32,000 nt of DNA, taken from NCBI RefSeq assembly GCF_001457615.1, contig NZ_LN831024.1, positions 150,001 through 182,000 of the forward strand, written 5' to 3'. The number at the start of each line of letters is the position of its first letter. Position 1 is the stretch's first letter. This DNA comes from Pseudomonas aeruginosa (GTDB taxonomy: Bacteria; Pseudomonadota; Gammaproteobacteria; Pseudomonadales; Pseudomonadaceae). The notes under the pieces were generated by a model. That model was not told where the DNA came from. It did no database searches and was given only the letters and a program-made list of their open reading frames with translations. Shown in pieces: positions 11,795 through 19,020 of this stretch. A program made the position numbers and the translations under genes.

Positions 11795-13143
11795 ATGTCC
11801 CGCACCTGGATTCGCAATCCCCTCGCCATCTTCACCGCCAACGGTCTCGACGCCGCCGGCGGCCTGGTCGTCGAAGACGGCCGCATCGTCGAGCTGCTCG
11901 GCGCCGGCCAACAGCCCGCGCAGCCCTGCGCCAGCCAGTTCGACGCCAGCCGGCACGTGGTGTTGCCGGGGCTGGTCAACACCCATCACCACTTCTACCA
12001 GACCCTCACCCGCGCCTGGGCGCCGGTGGTCAACCAGCCGCTGTTCCCCTGGCTGAAGACCCTCTACCCGGTCTGGGCGCGGCTGACCCGGAGAAACTCG
12101 CACTGGCCACCAAGGTGGCGCTGGCCGAGCTGCTGTTGTCCGGCTGTACCACTGCCGCCGACCACCACTACCTGTTTCCCGGCGGCCTCGAACAGGCCAT
12201 CGACGTGCAGGCCGGGGTGGTCGAGGAACTGGGCATGCGCGCCATGCTCACCCGCGGCTCGATGAGCCTCGGCGAGAAGGACGGCGGCTTGCCGCCGCAG
12301 CAGACGGTGCAGGAAGCCGAGACCATCCTCGCCGACAGTGAGCGACTGATCGCCCGCTACCACCAGCGCGGAGACGGTGCCCGGGTGCAGATCGCCCTGG
12401 CGCCCTGCTCGCCGTTCTCGGTGACTCCGGAGATCATGCGCGCCAGCGCCGAAGTGGCGGCGCGCCACGACGTACGCCTGCACACCCACCTGGCGGAGAC
12501 CCTCGACGAGGAAGACTTCTGCCTGCAGCGCTTCGGCCTGCGTACCGTGGACTACCTGGATAGCGTCGGCTGGCTCGGCCCGCGCACCTGGCTGGCCCAC
12601 GGCATCCACTTCAACGCCGAGGAGATCCGCCGGCTCGGCGAGGCGGGCACCGGTATCTGCCATTGCCCGAGTTCGAACATGCGCCTGGCCTCGGGCATCT
12701 GCCCGACCGTGGAGCTGGAGGCGGCCGGCGCGCCGATCGGCCTGGGAGTCGATGGCTCGGCCTCCAACGACGCCTCGAACATGATCCTCGAGGCGCGCCA
12801 GGCCCTGTACCTGCAACGCCTGCGCTACGGCGCCGAGCGGATCACCCCGGAACTCGCCCTGGGCTGGGCCACCCGTGGCTCGGCACGCCTGCTCGGGCGC
12901 AGCGACATCGGCGAGCTGGCCCCCGGCAAGCAGGCCGACCTGGCCTTGTTCAAGCTCGACGAGCTGCGCTTCTCGGGTAGCCACGACCCGCTCTCGGCGC
13001 TGCTGCTGTGCGCTGCCGACCGTGCCGACCGGGTAATGGTCGGCGGCGCCTGGCGAGTGGTCGACGGTGCCGTGGAAGGGCTCGACCTGGCCGCCCTGAT
13101 CGCCCGCCACCGCGAGGCGGCGAGCGCCCTGATCGCCGGGTGA
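11795..13143 (+). pseudogene. 8-oxoguanine deaminase-type amidohydrolase (TRZ/ATZ / SsnA-like), split by a -1 frameshift near 12087-12089
   Basis: The N-terminal part, from the ATG at 11795, reads MSRTWIRNPLAIFTANG...LPGLVNTHHHFYQTLTRAWAPVVNQPLFPWLKTLYPVWARLT, then degenerates (RRNSHWPPRWRW...) and stops at 12265. The frame of ORF 12115..13143 reads upstream as PEKLALATKVALAELLLSGCTTAADHHYLFP and continues through HTHLAET, HCPSSNMRLASG and GLGVDGSASND to a normal C-terminus. CTGACCCGGAG at 12083-12093 would need CCCC to stay in frame. Confidence 0.8.
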
Positions 13144-13184: not shown

Positions 13185-13250
13185 TTCGCATAGGTCGGCG
13201 CGTGGCCCGCAACTGGCTAGACTGTGGCATTCCCCACCAGGAGCCGCCCC

Positions 13251-14303
13251 ATGTCACGCGCCGCCCGCCCATGCAATCGCTTTTGCAGCCTTCTGCTAGG
13301 ACTCGCCCTGCTGATGCCCGCCAGCCTTCCTCTGTCCGCTGCCGAAACGGTGGCGCCGCCATTGCCGCGGACGCTGATCATCGACACCGATCCGGGCGCC
13401 GACGATGTGATCGCCCTGCTGTTCGCCATGGCCTCGCCGAAGGAGCTGAAGATCCAGGCGCTGACCACCGTCGCCGGCAACGTGCCGCTGGAAAAGACCG
13501 CGCGTAACGCCCGGCTGGCCCGCGAGTGGGGCAAGCGCCCGGATATTCCGGTCTACGCCGGCGCCCCGCGACCGCTGCTGCGCACGCCGATCTACGCCGC
13601 CGACGTGCACGGCAGCGAAGGCATCAGCGGCGTCGAGGTGCATGAGCCGAAGCAGCCGCTGGCCGAAGGTAACGCCGTGGACTACCTGATCCGCACCTTG
13701 CGTGCGGCGCCGGAGAAGAGCGTGACCCTGGCCATGCTCGGCCCGGAGACCAACCTCGCGCTGGCCCTGACCCAGGCCCCGGACATCGTCAAGGGCATCC
13801 GCGAGATCGTGATCATGGGCGGCGCCCACTTCAACGGCGGCAACATCACCCCGGCCGCCGAATTCAATATCTTCGCCGACCCCCACGCGGCGGAAATCGT
13901 GCTCAAGAGCGGGGCGCCGATCACCATGCTGCCGCTCGACGTGACCCACAAGATCCTCACCAGCCCCGAGCGCATCGCCAAGCTGCGCAACCTCGGCAAC
14001 CAGGCCGGCAAGACCGTCGCCGACATCCTCGACGCCTACGTCCAGTACGACATCAAGTACTACGGCCTGAAGGGCGGCCCGGTGCACGACGCCACGGTGG
14101 TCGCCTACCTGCTCAAGCCCTCGCTGTTCAAGGGCAAGCGGATCAACGTGCAGGTCGACAGCCGCGAGGGCATCACCTTCGGCCAGACCGTGGCCGACTG
14201 GTACGGCGGCCTCAAGCAGCCGGCCAACGTCGAGTGGATCAACGAGGGCGACGCCCAGGGGTTCTTCGACCTGCTCACCGAGCGTATCGCCCGCCTGCCC
14301 TGA
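13251..14303 (+). CDS. nuh: inosine/uridine-preferring (nonspecific) ribonucleoside hydrolase with an N-terminal signal peptide
   Basis: ATG at 13251 with AGGAG 8 nt upstream; 350 aa. The N-terminus MSRAARPCNRFCSLLLGLALLMPASLPLSAAE looks like a Sec signal. The IUNH fingerprint IIDTDPGADD follows. The track start at 13224 lacks an RBS. Confidence 0.9.
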   Translation: MSRAARPCNRFCSLLLGLALLMPASLPLSAAETVAPPLPRTLIIDTDPGADDVIALLFAMASPKELKIQALTTVAGNVPLEKTARNARLAREWGKRPDIPVYAGAPRPLLRTPIYAADVHGSEGISGVEVHEPKQPLAEGNAVDYLIRTLRAAPEKSVTLAMLGPETNLALALTQAPDIVKGIREIVIMGGAHFNGGNITPAAEFNIFADPHAAEIVLKSGAPITMLPLDVTHKILTSPERIAKLRNLGNQAGKTVADILDAYVQYDIKYYGLKGGPVHDATVVAYLLKPSLFKGKRINVQVDSREGITFGQTVADWYGGLKQPANVEWINEGDAQGFFDLLTERIARLP

Positions 14304-14330: not shown

Positions 14331-14957
14331 TCAGCCGTGGCGCCGGCTGGCGAGTTGGCGCAGGGCCTGCTCGGCGTCGCCGACGACTAGCGTTGCCGGC
14401 ACCGCCAGCATCAGATTGAGCGGCAGGCCGAACTCTTCCAGGGTCATGCCGTCGCGGTCGCGGGTCGGATCCTCGCCGATCAGCTCCGGGGCGTGCCGGC
14501 GGATTCGCTCGGCGTAGCTGCCGGCGTCGTCGACGTAGCCATAGACCGGCTTGCCGAGGGCGGTGGCATAGCCGACCTCGAAGGCGGTGCCGCTGTCCGG
14601 CTCGGCGCCGCGGAAGAAGTTCAGGTTGGCCAGCACCGCGTCGGCGCGTTCGATCAGGCCGATGTTGGCGCGGTAGATCCAGGCCGCCTGTTCGCGCGGC
14701 TCGGCGAGCTGTTTCGGCAGCGCGTTGTCCAGCGGGTAGAGGCCCTCGAAACCGTAGCGTGCGCACAGTGCCTTGAGTGCTTCGCCGTGGGCGACGGCGT
14801 CGGCGCGGAACACATCGGGACCGGCCAGATAGAGTTTCCGCGGCCTGGCCGCGGCGCGTACACCCGGCAGGCTGCCGAGCAGGGCGCCGGCGGGCAGCAG
14901 CAGGGCTGCCAGGCGCAGGAAGGTACGACGGCTGCTGGAACCCTTGGATCGGTTCAT
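14331..14957 (-). CDS. nucleoside 2-deoxyribosyltransferase-family protein with a twin-arginine (Tat) signal peptide
   Basis: 208-aa ORF with AGAGG 6 nt upstream of the ATG. The N-terminus MNRSKGSSSRRTFLRLAALLLPAGALLGSLPGVRAAA carries an SRRxFL Tat motif. NDT-family motifs LYLAGPDVF and EPDSGTAFEVGYA are present. Confidence 0.85.
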   Translation of the reverse strand: MNRSKGSSSRRTFLRLAALLLPAGALLGSLPGVRAAARPRKLYLAGPDVFRADAVAHGEALKALCARYGFEGLYPLDNALPKQLAEPREQAAWIYRANIGLIERADAVLANLNFFRGAEPDSGTAFEVGYATALGKPVYGYVDDAGSYAERIRRHAPELIGEDPTRDRDGMTLEEFGLPLNLMLAVPATLVVGDAEQALRQLASRRHG

Positions 14958-15078
14958 CGGATGCCTCTTGCAGGCCGGCCTCCCGGATGGGGCCGTTGTT
15001 GTCCAGCATTATGGCCGGCAAGCGACAGGCCGGGCGGCGGCTATCTGCCAGCAGCTAGGCGACGGCCTTCCCGCGATG

Positions 15079-15594
15079 TCAGGCGCGCTCGAGTTCCTCG
15101 GCGAGGCGTCGCAGAGCCTCGCGCGGGCCGCCGGCGACCAGCCGCGAAGGCACCGCCAGCATCAGGTTCAATGGCAGGCCGAAACCCTCCAGTTGCCAAC
15201 CGTCGCGGTCCTCGCCGGGGTGCTCGCCGAGCCATTCCGGGGCCAGCCGGGCGAGGCGCTCGGTGTAGGCGCCGGCATCGCTGAGGTAGGCATATACCGG
15301 CTTGCCCAGGGCCAGGGCGTAACCCACTTCGAAGGCGGTGCCGCTGTCCGGCTCGCTGCCGCGGAACGGTTCGAGGTTGGCCAGCACGCAGTCGGCGCGC
15401 TCGATCAGGCCGACATTGGCGCGGTAGATCCAGGCGGCCTGTGCGGCTGGCTCGCGGATGTCGGCGGGCAGGGCGTGGTCGAGCGGGTAGAGGCCGACGA
15501 AGCCGAACTCGGCGCAGAGCGCCTTGAGGGTTTCGCCATGGGCTTCGGCGTCGGGGCGGAAGACGTCCGGCCCGGCCAGGTAGATCGCGGTCAT
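15079..15594 (-). CDS. nucleoside 2-deoxyribosyltransferase-family protein (cytoplasmic paralog, no signal peptide)
   Basis: 171-aa ORF, MTAIYLAGPDVFRPDAEAHGETLKALCAEFGF...EPDSGTAFEVGYALALGKPVYAY. By eye it is roughly two-thirds identical to the mature part of the upstream paralog. Confidence 0.85.
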   Translation of the reverse strand: MTAIYLAGPDVFRPDAEAHGETLKALCAEFGFVGLYPLDHALPADIREPAAQAAWIYRANVGLIERADCVLANLEPFRGSEPDSGTAFEVGYALALGKPVYAYLSDAGAYTERLARLAPEWLGEHPGEDRDGWQLEGFGLPLNLMLAVPSRLVAGGPREALRRLAEELERA

Positions 15595-15832
15595 CGCGTG
15601 CGTGCCTTGTTACGGAAAGCCAGCGCCCATGGTAGCGCCATCGTGGCGGCGCCGGCATGCACCAAGCGATGGCGCGCTGCACCGTCCTGCAGCCGCGCCG
15701 GCATGACGCGGCGCGCAGAAGCGCGAGCTTGAGCGGAGTTGTCCGGGTGGTCAGGTAATTGCATCGGCGGGCGGGCTGAACGCGAAGCCACGCCCGATGG
15801 CCAACCCTGCACTCACCGGAGCACGCCCATCC

Positions 15833-16930
15833 ATGAAACACCGTCGCACGCAATCCCGCATGTCCGTCCTGCGCCGCCTTGCCGCCGTCCTCGGCCTCGG
15901 CGCCTGCGCTCTCGCCGCCGAGGCCGCCGAACCACTGAAGATCGGCTTCGTCTATGTCGGCCCGGTCGGCGACCACGGCTGGACCTACCAGCACGAACTG
16001 GGCCGCCGCGAACTGGTGGAGCACTTCGGCGACAAGGTGAAGACCAGCTTCGTCGAGAACGTCGCCGAGGGCGCCGACGCCGAGCGGGTCATCCGCAACC
16101 TGGCGAAAGACGGCTACGGCCTGGTCTTCACCACCTCCTTCGGCTACATGAACCCTACCGCCAAGGTGGCCCGGCAGTTTCCCAAGGTGACCTTCGAGCA
16201 CGCCACCGGCTACAAGCGCGACAGGAACCTCGGCACCTACCTGTCGCGCTCCTACGAGGGACGCTACGTCGGCGGCTTCCTCGCGGCGAAGATGACCCGC
16301 AGCCACAAGATCGGCTACATCGCCTCGTTTCCGATTCCCGAGGTGATCCGCGACATCAACGCGATCCAGCTGGCGCTGGACAAATACGACCCGCAGGCCG
16401 AACTCAAGGTGATGTGGGTGAGCACCTGGTTCGATCCGGGCAAGGAGGCCGACGCGGCCACCGCGCTGATCGACCAGGGCGTCGACGTGGTGTTCCAGCA
16501 CACCGATAGCCCGGCGCCGATCCAGGCCGCCGAGCGTCGCGGGGTGTACGCCGTGGGCTACGCCTCGGACATGCAGCACTTCGGTCCGAAGACCGTGCTC
16601 ACCTCGATCGTCAACGACTGGGGCCCGCACTATATCCGCTCGGCCCAGGCGGTGATGGACGGCACCTGGAAATCCGAGGACTTCTGGGGTGGCCTGGCCG
16701 AGAGTACGGTGGTCCTGCCGCTGAACCAGGAGGTGCTGCCGGCGCCGGTGCGGGAAGAGGCGGGCAGGCTGATCGAGTCGATCCGCAGCGGAGCCTTCCA
16801 CCCCTTCACTGGGCCGATCCGCGACCAGTCCGGCAAGGAGCGTTTCGCCGCCGGCGTCAGCGCGACCAATGCCGACCTGGCGTCGATGAACTATTACGTG
16901 GAAGGCATCAAGGCCGACCTGCCGAAGTGA
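15833..16930 (+). CDS. BMP-family (PnrA/Med-like) ABC transporter substrate-binding protein, probable nucleoside-binding lipoprotein
   Basis: Frame of ORF 15797..16930. I prefer the ATG at 15833 (MKHRRTQSRMSVLRRLAAVLGLGACALAAEAAEP), which has GGAG 11 nt upstream. The signal peptide has a possible LGAC lipobox. BMP-family core: LKIGFVYVGPVGDHGWTYQH...FTTSFGYM...GYIASFPIPEV. Alternative starts at 15797 and 15860. Confidence 0.85.
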   Translation: MKHRRTQSRMSVLRRLAAVLGLGACALAAEAAEPLKIGFVYVGPVGDHGWTYQHELGRRELVEHFGDKVKTSFVENVAEGADAERVIRNLAKDGYGLVFTTSFGYMNPTAKVARQFPKVTFEHATGYKRDRNLGTYLSRSYEGRYVGGFLAAKMTRSHKIGYIASFPIPEVIRDINAIQLALDKYDPQAELKVMWVSTWFDPGKEADAATALIDQGVDVVFQHTDSPAPIQAAERRGVYAVGYASDMQHFGPKTVLTSIVNDWGPHYIRSAQAVMDGTWKSEDFWGGLAESTVVLPLNQEVLPAPVREEAGRLIESIRSGAFHPFTGPIRDQSGKERFAAGVSATNADLASMNYYVEGIKADLPK

Positions 16931-17002
16931 GCCCTGGCCTTGTATGGAAAAAGTCGCCGAGCGCAGGCACTTTCCGTACAGGACCCATCGAGGAGAGCGC
17001 GA

Positions 17003-17965
17003 TTGGACCGTCTACCCATCATCGACATCGCCCCGCTCTACGGCGCCGACCGTGGCGCCTGGAACGACGTGGCGCGGCGGATCGACCAGGCCTGCCGCGA
17101 GTGGGGCTTCTTCTACATCGCCGGACACCCGCTGCCGGCCGCGCGCTTCGAAGCCCTGTTGGCGGCGGCGCGGGAGTTCTTCGCGCTGCCCGTCGAAGAG
17201 AAGCTGAAGATCGATATCACCCGTAGCCGCAATCATCGCGGCTATGGCGCGATCGCCACCGAGCAGCTCGACCCGGCGTTGCCCAGCGACTTCAAGGAGA
17301 CCTTCGACATGGCCCTGCACCTGCCGGCGGAGCATCCCGACGTGCGCGCCGGCAAGTCCTTCTACGGGCCCAACCGACACCCCGACCTGCCCGGCTGGGA
17401 GGCCCTGCTGGAAGGACACTATGCCGACATGCTGGCGCTGGCCCGTACCGTGCTGCGCGCCCTGGCCATCGCCCTGGGGATCGAGGAGGACTTCTTCGAT
17501 CGCCGCTTCGAGCAGCCGGTCAGCGTGTTCCGCCTGATCCACTATCCGCCGGCCTCGGCCCGGCAGAGCGCCGACCAGCCCGGCGCCGGCGCGCACACCG
17601 ACTACGGCTGCGTGACCCTGCTCTACCAGGACGCCGCCGGTGGCCTGCAAGTGCAGAACCGCCAGGGCGAATGGATCGACGCGCCGCCCATCGACGGCAC
17701 CTTCGTGGTCAACATCGGCGACATGATGGCGCGCTGGAGCAACGACCGTTACCGCTCGACCCCGCACCGGGTGATCAGCCCGCGCGGGGTGCACCGCTAC
17801 TCCATGCCGTTCTTCGCCGAACCGCACATGGACACCGAGATCCGCTGCCTGCCGGGCTGCTTCGACGCGGACAACCCGCCGAAGTATCCGCCGACCACCT
17901 GTGGCGATTGGCTGACCTCGCGCTTCGCGCAGACCTATGCCTATCGGCGCGGCGAAACGGCCTGA
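17003..17965 (+). CDS. 2-oxoglutarate/Fe(II)-dependent oxygenase (isopenicillin N synthase-like family), substrate unknown
   Basis: Frame of ORF 16940..17965. There is no ATG near the 5' end. The TTG at 17003 has AGGAG 7 nt upstream and gives MDRLPIIDIAPLY..., the usual N-terminus for this family. The facial triad is HTD (GAHTDYG) plus H (STPHRV), with RYS for 2OG binding. The TTG at 16940 is the alternative start. Confidence 0.8.
   Translation: MDRLPIIDIAPLYGADRGAWNDVARRIDQACREWGFFYIAGHPLPAARFEALLAAAREFFALPVEEKLKIDITRSRNHRGYGAIATEQLDPALPSDFKETFDMALHLPAEHPDVRAGKSFYGPNRHPDLPGWEALLEGHYADMLALARTVLRALAIALGIEEDFFDRRFEQPVSVFRLIHYPPASARQSADQPGAGAHTDYGCVTLLYQDAAGGLQVQNRQGEWIDAPPIDGTFVVNIGDMMARWSNDRYRSTPHRVISPRGVHRYSMPFFAEPHMDTEIRCLPGCFDADNPPKYPPTTCGDWLTSRFAQTYAYRRGETA

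Positions 17966-18054: not shown

Positions 18055-19020
<966 letters not shown>

Follow-up and report, generated by a model that had tools for sequence, protein, structure and literature searches.

What would a nucleoside 2-deoxyribosyltransferase (NDT) be doing outside the cytoplasm? The question is raised by two tandem genes on the minus strand of a 32,000-nucleotide stretch of Pseudomonas aeruginosa DNA (the window; NCBI RefSeq assembly GCF_001457615.1, contig NZ_LN831024.1, positions 150,001 to 182,000). Both encode members of the NDT family, one of 208 residues (14331..14957) that bears a signal for export by twin-arginine translocation (Tat) and one of 171 residues (15079..15594) that has no signal and is expected to be cytoplasmic. 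The longer gene is the P. aeruginosa orthologue of PA0144, and its upstream neighbour is taken to be PA0145. We hold it to be very probable that PA0144 has been correctly identified and is exported. With considerably more reserve, we favor the view that it is a periplasmic, quorum sensing (QS)-induced enzyme acting on purine deoxynucleosides, by cleavage or by base exchange, as a complement to the nucleoside hydrolase Nuh encoded next to it and alongside a cytoplasmic PA0145. The more specific physiological role developed below is offered as a tentative proposal.

That the two genes are paralogs is clear from a BLASTP alignment of their products, which runs over 164 residues without gaps and contains 118 identities (72%, E = 1e-84). 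The first-pass annotation of this locus, made from the sequence alone, had estimated the identity by eye at about two-thirds, and it had placed both open reading frames (ORFs) on the minus strand with exact coordinates and lengths. Each ORF begins with ATG, and each product is covered from end to end (profile positions 1-117 of 117) by the Pfam family PF05014 (Nuc_deoxyrib_tr), with E = 3.3e-41 and 140.5 bits for the 208-residue copy and E = 1e-41 and 141.7 bits for the 171-residue copy, against a gathering cut-off of 28.8 bits. The family motifs that had been pointed out, YLAGPDVF and EPDSGTAFEVGYA, are present in both translations, and the shorter protein does start directly with MTAIYLAGP. 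Neither paralog matched an equivalog or other specific model in NCBIfam. The exact sequence of each is found on at least 1000 P. aeruginosa contigs, and the source annotation of both exact matches reads 'nucleoside 2-deoxyribosyltransferase [Pseudomonas aeruginosa]'.

The longer copy carries 41 extra residues ahead of the YLAGP motif, MNRSKGSSSRRTFLRLAALLLPAGALLGSLPGVRA followed by AARPRKL, and the first 35 of them (14853..14957, minus strand) have the organization expected of a Tat signal peptide. Residues 9-15 (14913..14933) read SRRTFLR, in keeping with the Tat consensus S/T-R-R-x-F-L-K, and lie at the boundary between the n-region and the h-region. The latter, AALLLPAGALLGSLPG, consists of 16 residues with no charge among them and a mean Kyte-Doolittle hydropathy of 1.55, and the c-region that follows ends in VRA-A, an AxA-type site after which cleavage is predicted. 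The twin-arginine motif, hydrophobic stretch and cleavage-like site that had been recognized by eye are therefore all confirmed. Translation from a downstream start lacking the arginine pair, which the first-pass annotation had raised against its own claim, is ruled out: ATG codon 1 is the sole in-frame ATG, GTG or TTG between the upstream stop codon and the fold, and the next in-frame start is a GTG at codon 49, within the fold and past the catalytic-site residue Tyr43. The ATG is preceded, at a distance of 6 nt, by the Shine-Dalgarno sequence AAGAGG. In an AlphaFold2 (AF2) model of the 208-residue protein, built on a 12-sequence alignment of gamma- and betaproteobacterial homologues, residues 1-39 are unstructured and the signal peptide has a predicted local distance difference test (pLDDT) score below 50. 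Between P. aeruginosa and Pseudomonas paraeruginosa the ratio of nonsynonymous to synonymous substitution rates (dN/dS) is 0.78 for the signal region and 0.21 for mature PA0144. Despite this faster divergence, the signal retains the arginine pair (SRRSFLR in P. paraeruginosa), an uncharged h-region and an AxA-type end.

Experimental support for export comes from the study of Tat signal peptides by Gimenez et al. (2018, Sci Rep 8:11950; PMC6085387), in which candidate peptides were fused to mature Escherichia coli AmiA and scored for rescue of a delta-ssamiAC E. coli strain; 26 of the 38 fusion constructs passed, 12 failed, and Sec signal controls failed as well. PA14_01780/PA0144, the same gene as the 208-residue copy in the window, appears in Table 1A of that paper with the (asterisked) peptide MSRSNGSSSRRTFLRLAALLLPAGALLGSLPGVRA. 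TATFIND and TatP agreed in predicting its signal, which is entered among 34 Tat-dependent proteins with the source given as 'This work', the protein itself being classed under 'other activities' with no function assigned (PMC6085387). Compared with the peptide that was assayed, the signal peptide in the window has changes at residues 2 and 5 only (MNRSK versus MSRSN), upstream of the arginine pair, and the twin-arginine motif, h-region and cleavage site are identical. The Tat-dependent export proposed for this protein thus agrees with two predictors and with a positive AmiA reporter result for the PA14 orthologue, and these published data contradict the objection that export might be absent or independent of Tat. 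Since the signal had already been predicted and validated with a reporter in that work, the Tat signal and the annotation of PA0144 are a correct observation that is already published and not a new one. What is new here is the lineage restriction of the Tat copy and of the tandem pair, the placement of nuh and PA0144, and the purifying selection on both paralogs.

What enzyme, then, does the signal precede? The AF2 model has a mean pLDDT of 80.5, with block means above 90 over most of the folded domain, and is predicted to adopt the Rossmann-like NDT fold. A Foldseek search of the PDB with this model returned the purine deoxyribosyltransferases (PDTs) of Trypanosoma brucei (2a0k) and Leishmania mexicana (6qai) as the first matches (E = 3.6e-11 and 1.7e-9, template modelling scores of 0.77-0.82, 34% identity), and the top 30 matches all belong to the NDT/PDT family. 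The same two proteins are the closest solved sequences by HMMER (E = 1e-17 and 4e-17, respectively). The family and fold originally claimed are upheld by the agreement of PF05014, AF2 and Foldseek, which excludes assignment to another family.

The L. mexicana enzyme (LmPDT) provides a guide to the probable active site. Its catalytic residues are Tyr8, Asn56, Asp79, Glu85, Glu121# and Asn128#, the last two reaching across from the other subunit; Glu85 is the nucleophile and is positioned by Tyr8, Asp79 binds the deoxyribose, Asn56 contacts the base, and Glu121# protonates the purine N7 (bioRxiv 10.1101/2024.11.29.626018). In the HMMER alignment these residues correspond to Y43, N98, D121, E127, E174 and N181 of PA0144, which together form its predicted active site. 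Y43 lies in YLAGP and E127 in EPDSGTAFE, and E174 and N181 belong to the region of a PDT-specific FGLPLNLML motif. The PA0145 numbering is that of PA0144 minus 38, which places its predicted nucleophile at E89 and the tyrosine at Y5. Y43, D121, E127, E174 and N181 are invariant in the 12-sequence alignment, and position 98 varies between Asn and Asp, matching what has been reported for the family (bioRxiv 10.1101/2024.11.29.626018). On these alignments, both paralogs hold the complete PDT-type catalytic apparatus, and from the conserved cross-subunit residues we infer that PA0144 is an oligomer with an active site shared between subunits.

Comparison with characterized relatives brings out both what is ordinary and what is distinctive about PA0144. 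The trypanosomatid PDTs (2a0k and 6qai; type I NDTs) share with it all six active-site residues, including the cross-subunit Glu and Asn in FGLP(F/L)NLML. Their solved chains lack a signal peptide (the alignments start at residue ~4-9), whereas PA0144 has a 35-residue Tat signal, and its insert before FGLPLNLML is about 10 residues longer than theirs. The Lactobacillus type II NDT and type I PTD (1s2d and 9ezk) have the same fold, a Glu nucleophile in a G-T-x-x-E motif and a ping-pong covalent mechanism. They are more distant from PA0144 (18-19% identity, E = 1e-5 to 1e-4), are cytoplasmic and, unlike PA0144, lack the FGLPxNLML motif. Lactobacillus NDTs are hexameric.

How unusual is an exported member of this family? 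Among the 120 best matches from a collection of 5.8 billion proteins, clustered at 90% identity, the signal-bearing proteins all come from the P. aeruginosa/P. paraeruginosa group. The remaining matches, 65-73% identical, begin two to five residues ahead of YLAGP and come from the Pseudomonas oryzihabitans group, Stutzerimonas, Luteimonas, Pseudoxanthomonas, Stenotrophomonas and others. A species scan with one genome per species and 80 loci kept found the tandem pair with an arginine pair-bearing copy in only two, P. paraeruginosa and a contig that resembles P. aeruginosa but was deposited as part of a 'Devosia' metagenome-assembled genome (MAG); at the other 78 the in-frame upstream sequence contains no signal. 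When 1.84 billion representatives of 50%-identity clusters were searched, 2481 relatives were obtained; the best 150 were inspected, and in none other of these does a hydrophobic stretch follow a Tat motif. Because no further Tat-bearing member turned up among the 80 loci or the best 150 representatives, Tat export of an NDT-family enzyme is genuinely rare, which bears out the earlier remark that an exported NDT would be unusual.

Two of the sequences met in these searches call for comment. One candidate for a second exported member, P0174 (locus L081, from Logan SRR5245157), has a hydrophobic N-terminus, SRWRVALIGVSMVLGGLGLGLV, that may be a signal anchor; it is uninformative because the contig is only 987 bp long and the gene begins at its third base, making the N-terminus unreliable. 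The other is the 'Devosia sp.' MAG contig (L001; NZ_DASWVV010000070.1, 4996 bp), on which nuh, PA0144 and PA0145 are all found. Identity to the window proteins is 98% for PA0144 and 99-100% for Nuh and the 8-oxoguanine deaminase, and by these values the contig almost certainly belongs to P. aeruginosa and was mis-binned.

In neighbor-joining trees PA0145 groups with the orthologues of Pseudomonas panipatensis, P. delhiensis, P. jinjuensis and P. nitroreducens, and the gene is single-copy in the other pseudomonads, the Lysobacteraceae (gammaproteobacterial) and the betaproteobacterial genomes sampled. By these trees, and by the synteny it has in common with those orthologues, PA0145 is the vertically inherited, ancestral copy. 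A recent tandem duplication of PA0145 is unsupported as the origin of PA0144: the Tat clade is recovered as the exclusive sister of PA0145 in 7% of 200 neighbor-joining bootstraps, and a search for shared derived residues came up empty. In about half of the same bootstraps the Tat clade lies at the base of a clade made up of the aeruginosa group and Stutzerimonas. A sliding-window comparison of identity revealed no clear gene-conversion tract, and the codon bias of these GC-rich genes distorts the synonymous divergence too much for it to date the origin of PA0144, which would have been either an old duplication or a lateral acquisition. Whatever its source, the gene has been retained: the dN/dS ratios of mature PA0144 (0.21) and PA0145 (0.24) between P. 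aeruginosa and P. paraeruginosa indicate that both paralogs are under purifying selection and are being maintained.

A likely context for the exported copy is provided by its neighbors. Immediately beyond PA0144 lies the orthologue of nuh (PA0143; 13224..14303, plus strand; PF01156, E = 1e-98), which encodes an inosine-uridine (IU)-type ribonucleoside hydrolase with a Sec-type signal. The listed start is the GTG at 13224, and an ATG nine codons further on (13251) yields MSRAARPCNRFCSLLLGLALLMPASLPLSA followed by a predicted cleavage site and AE, a typical Sec-type signal. Nuh and PA0144 are alike in being QS-activated, encoded side by side and, as predicted for PA0144, periplasmic and able to cleave the N-glycosidic bond of purine nucleosides. 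They differ in fold, that of Nuh (PF01156) being unrelated, and in the use of a Sec-type rather than a Tat signal. When the window neighbors were searched by tblastn against the 80 species loci, nuh adjoined the NDT genes only in the two loci that also carry the tandem pair. In P. panipatensis, Pseudomonas sp. CAN1, Stutzerimonas azotifigens, S. marianensis and others, the single-copy NDT gene has conserved purine neighbors, namely genes for a Bmp binding protein, a 2-oxoglutarate (2OG) oxygenase, an adenine-deaminase-family protein and/or an 8-oxoguanine deaminase. In S. azotifigens nothing separates the NDT gene from the 8-oxoguanine deaminase gene. P. aeruginosa has PA0144 and nuh between PA0145 and that gene, an arrangement found, among the loci searched, only in the aeruginosa/paraeruginosa lineage. 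From this difference in gene order, nuh and PA0144 look like two periplasmic enzymes that were added to an older cytoplasmic purine cluster.

The rest of that cluster can be followed on the plus strand on both sides of the pair. Divergent from PA0145 is the orthologue of PA0146 (15797..16930; PF02608, E = 1.6e-54), a Bmp/PnrA-like ATP-binding cassette (ABC) substrate-binding protein of the nucleoside-binding family. Its N-terminus, ...MSVLRRLAAVLGLGACALAAEA, contains an arginine pair ahead of a hydrophobic stretch, a possible lipobox (LGAC) and three in-frame Met codons. A 2OG-Fe(II) oxygenase gene (16940..17965) and an adenine/adenosine deaminase-family gene (18070..19020), both assigned from Pfam and synteny, come next, and the wider purine region of P. 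aeruginosa also includes an ABC ATPase, permeases, an AhpF-like gene and a set of ECF, FecR and TonB-receptor genes. Beyond nuh lies the orthologue of the 8-oxoguanine deaminase gene PA0142 (11795..13143; NCBIfam NF006055, E = 5e-166 for the C-terminal 342 residues), part of the purine-catabolic context. In the window it is frameshifted: a 1-bp deletion in a C run at ~12087-12089 gives GACCC-GGAG in place of the GACCCCGGAG found in L001 and in P. paraeruginosa (L002), so the frame shifts after residue ~98 and only the ORF for the C-terminal 342 residues is left. Either the gene is a pseudogene in this particular strain, or the sequence contains an error at this point.

Regulation also ties PA0144 to Nuh. 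Both genes are QS-activated, they alone remained highly expressed among 51 genes that were lost from QS control, and the nuh product has been described as periplasmic and as a private good (bioRxiv 10.1101/2021.07.01.450773 / mBio 2022). The PA0144 protein also appears as differentially abundant, with negative fold-change values, in the proteomic tables of a study of CprRS. The 121-bp spacer between PA0145 and PA0144 (14958..15078, minus strand) is almost invariant between P. aeruginosa and P. paraeruginosa. Besides the AAGAGG ribosome-binding site, inspection of the spacer revealed a CATAAT hexamer resembling a -10 element (15008-15013). An 18-bp imperfect palindrome, CTAGCTGCTGGCAGATAG (15041..15058), lies 27 bp upstream of this hexamer and is invariant in a three-sequence alignment of P. 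aeruginosa and P. paraeruginosa; it is a candidate operator, perhaps one for a LuxR-type QS regulator. A simple scan of the spacer found no consensus sigma-70 promoter and no minus-strand terminator. The spacer also contains a terminator-like hairpin on the plus strand (14976-14995), antisense to both genes, which is probably due to chance, the count of such hairpins being no higher than in shuffled sequence.

With these elements in place, the following scheme can be envisaged. PA0144 would be the paralog that acquired a twin-arginine signal peptide. It would fold and dimerize inside the cytoplasm prior to being exported, since its active site appears to be built from two chains, with Glu174 and Asn181 supplied by the partner, and such a two-chain site would provide a rationale for the use of Tat despite the absence of a cofactor. 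The folded enzyme would then be exported via Tat and cleaved after VRA. Once in the periplasm, Glu127 would attack C1' of purine 2'-deoxynucleosides to form a deoxyribosyl-enzyme intermediate with release of the base, and this intermediate would be resolved either by water, for net hydrolysis to deoxyribose, or by a second purine, for base exchange. Enzymes of the IU-type nucleoside hydrolase class to which Nuh belongs are Ca2+-dependent and ribose-specific. They require the ribose 2'-hydroxyl, so a deoxy-specific partner for Nuh would fill a gap, with Nuh taking ribonucleosides and PA0144 deoxyribonucleosides as a QS-induced periplasmic nucleoside-cleaving pair. The deoxynucleosides may derive from extracellular DNA (eDNA) after the action of EddB and EddA. 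P. aeruginosa can live on eDNA by means of the secreted DNase EddB, and EddA, a phosphodiesterase/alkaline phosphatase encoded upstream, is itself a Tat substrate. The cleavage products would feed base and sugar transporters, and PA0145 would carry out the same chemistry in the cytoplasm on imported deoxynucleosides. As for PA0145 itself, its sequence and surroundings are best explained by a cytoplasmic purine-type nucleoside 2'-deoxyribosyltransferase that operates within a cluster for purine/nucleoside uptake and catabolism.

Several considerations weigh against this scheme. NDTs are mainly transferases that as a rule hydrolyze slowly, and one cannot count on the role being purely catabolic. 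The genes PA0144 and nuh converge, with 27 bp between their stop codons; they cannot share one transcript and are not an operon. The palindrome upstream of PA0144 has CT-N14-AG rather than the CT-N12-AG of a canonical las/rhl box, and because its spacing departs from the canonical one it is only a candidate operator. The literature searched yielded no enzymology of PA0144 or PA0145. Finally, export was seen for a fusion of the signal peptide to AmiA in E. coli rather than for native PA0144 in P. aeruginosa, and a paper on the Tat exoproteome names neither PA0144 nor Nuh in its main text.

Other readings of the locus must also be considered, beginning with the nature of the substrate. The exported enzyme might act on phosphorylated compounds, as a periplasmic DNPH1/Rcl-like N-glycosidase of deoxynucleoside or nucleoside monophosphates or as a LOG-like phosphoribohydrolase. 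PA0144 and DNPH1, a cytosolic nucleotide hydrolase and not a transferase, belong to a common superfamily, DNPH1/Rcl chains enter the Foldseek list from rank 31 on (E = 3e-5 and weaker), and the Gene Ontology label attached to PA0144 is 'deoxyribonucleoside monophosphate catabolic process' (PMC6085387). Its nearest relatives in both sequence and fold are nevertheless nucleoside-specific PDTs, and an hhalign comparison of the PA0144 family with human DNPH1 (the latter sequence checked against PDB chains) gave a weak match (probability 61%, 53 columns). In this alignment E127 falls opposite the catalytic Glu104 and N98 opposite Asp80, and D121 falls opposite Ser98, so that the serine found in DNPH1 before the G-x-x-x-E motif is absent from PA0144. 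That serine in DNPH1/Rcl presumably helps to hold the 5'-phosphate. Because an Asp is kept in its place, and because the PDT-specific FGLPLNLML motif is present with Glu174 and Asn181 invariant, the aligned residues argue for nucleosides as the substrate of PA0144 rather than nucleotides or cytokinin riboside phosphates. D121, E174 and N181 likewise disfavor the nucleotide and LOG-like options that the first-pass annotation had entertained, and we regard a phosphorylated substrate as unlikely. Accepting nucleoside substrates, one could still suppose that the enzyme serves mainly to remodel them by base exchange instead of degrading them, or to inactivate toxic or host-signalling deoxynucleosides or analogues such as deoxyadenosine, in a defense or virulence role and not in nutrition. 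Transferase chemistry is the hallmark of the family (bioRxiv 10.1101/2024.11.29.626018), QS control is shared with many virulence factors (bioRxiv 10.1101/2021.07.01.450773 / mBio 2022), and among the 80 species loci the gene is confined to a pathogen lineage. Set against these points is the catabolic and salvage character of the neighbors, with Nuh, deaminases and a nucleoside-binding protein among them, and such a role seems to us improbable.

The location of the two proteins can be questioned as well. The evidence for export comes from a reporter fusion in a heterologous host, and Tat proofreading may reject some native passengers. The N-terminal extension might accordingly be nonfunctional in the native protein, or be an uncleaved membrane anchor, leaving PA0144 at or inside the cytoplasmic membrane. 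This is quite unlikely in view of the fact that the peptide was positive in an assay where 12 of 38 fusions failed along with the Sec controls (PMC6085387), and that the arginine pair, the uncharged h-region and the AxA-type c-region are kept in both P. aeruginosa and P. paraeruginosa. An anchor is further disfavored by the h-region, whose hydrophobicity is moderate (the Kyte-Doolittle mean of 1.55) and which is broken by Pro and Gly, as is typical of cleaved Tat signals. At the other extreme, both proteins might be periplasmic, with PA0145 leaving the cytoplasm as a hitchhiker in a PA0144-PA0145 heterodimer that relies on one Tat signal. This would be permitted by the presence in tandem of one paralog with a signal and one lacking it, by their 72% identity and by the conservation of all cross-subunit active-site residues, and Tat can move a complex when just one of its partners carries a signal (PMC6085387). 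PA0145 is, however, vertically inherited and occurs as a single copy lacking a signal-bearing partner in the 78 other species, which speaks for a self-sufficient cytoplasmic role. In addition, it is PA0144 and not PA0145 that has been reported to be QS-activated with nuh (bioRxiv 10.1101/2021.07.01.450773 / mBio 2022). Export of PA0145 by this route therefore strikes us as highly improbable.

Returning to PA0144 as a periplasmic deoxynucleoside-cleaving partner of Nuh, the gene content and regulation suggest a broader picture that we put forward as speculation, considering it possible though rather doubtful in its entirety. In this picture nuh and PA0144 would constitute a lineage-specific, QS-controlled periplasmic nucleoside-cracking module that was added beside the ancestral PA0145. 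PA0144, the sole known Tat-exported NDT-family enzyme, would be the deoxyribose-specific arm that strips purine bases from eDNA-derived deoxynucleosides as a private good, perhaps with PA0145 traveling with it as a hitchhiker.

The genes and the Tat signal were already catalogued, and they add no new kind of system. Nevertheless, an NDT-family enzyme outside the cytoplasm is apparently essentially unique to P. aeruginosa, and Nuh, with which PA0144 is co-induced by QS, is the model private good of sociomicrobiology experiments. If the proposed function is correct, PA0144 would either confound adenosine-based cheating experiments or figure in them as a second private good, and the turnover of eDNA in biofilms and at infection sites would be linked to QS-controlled purine acquisition.

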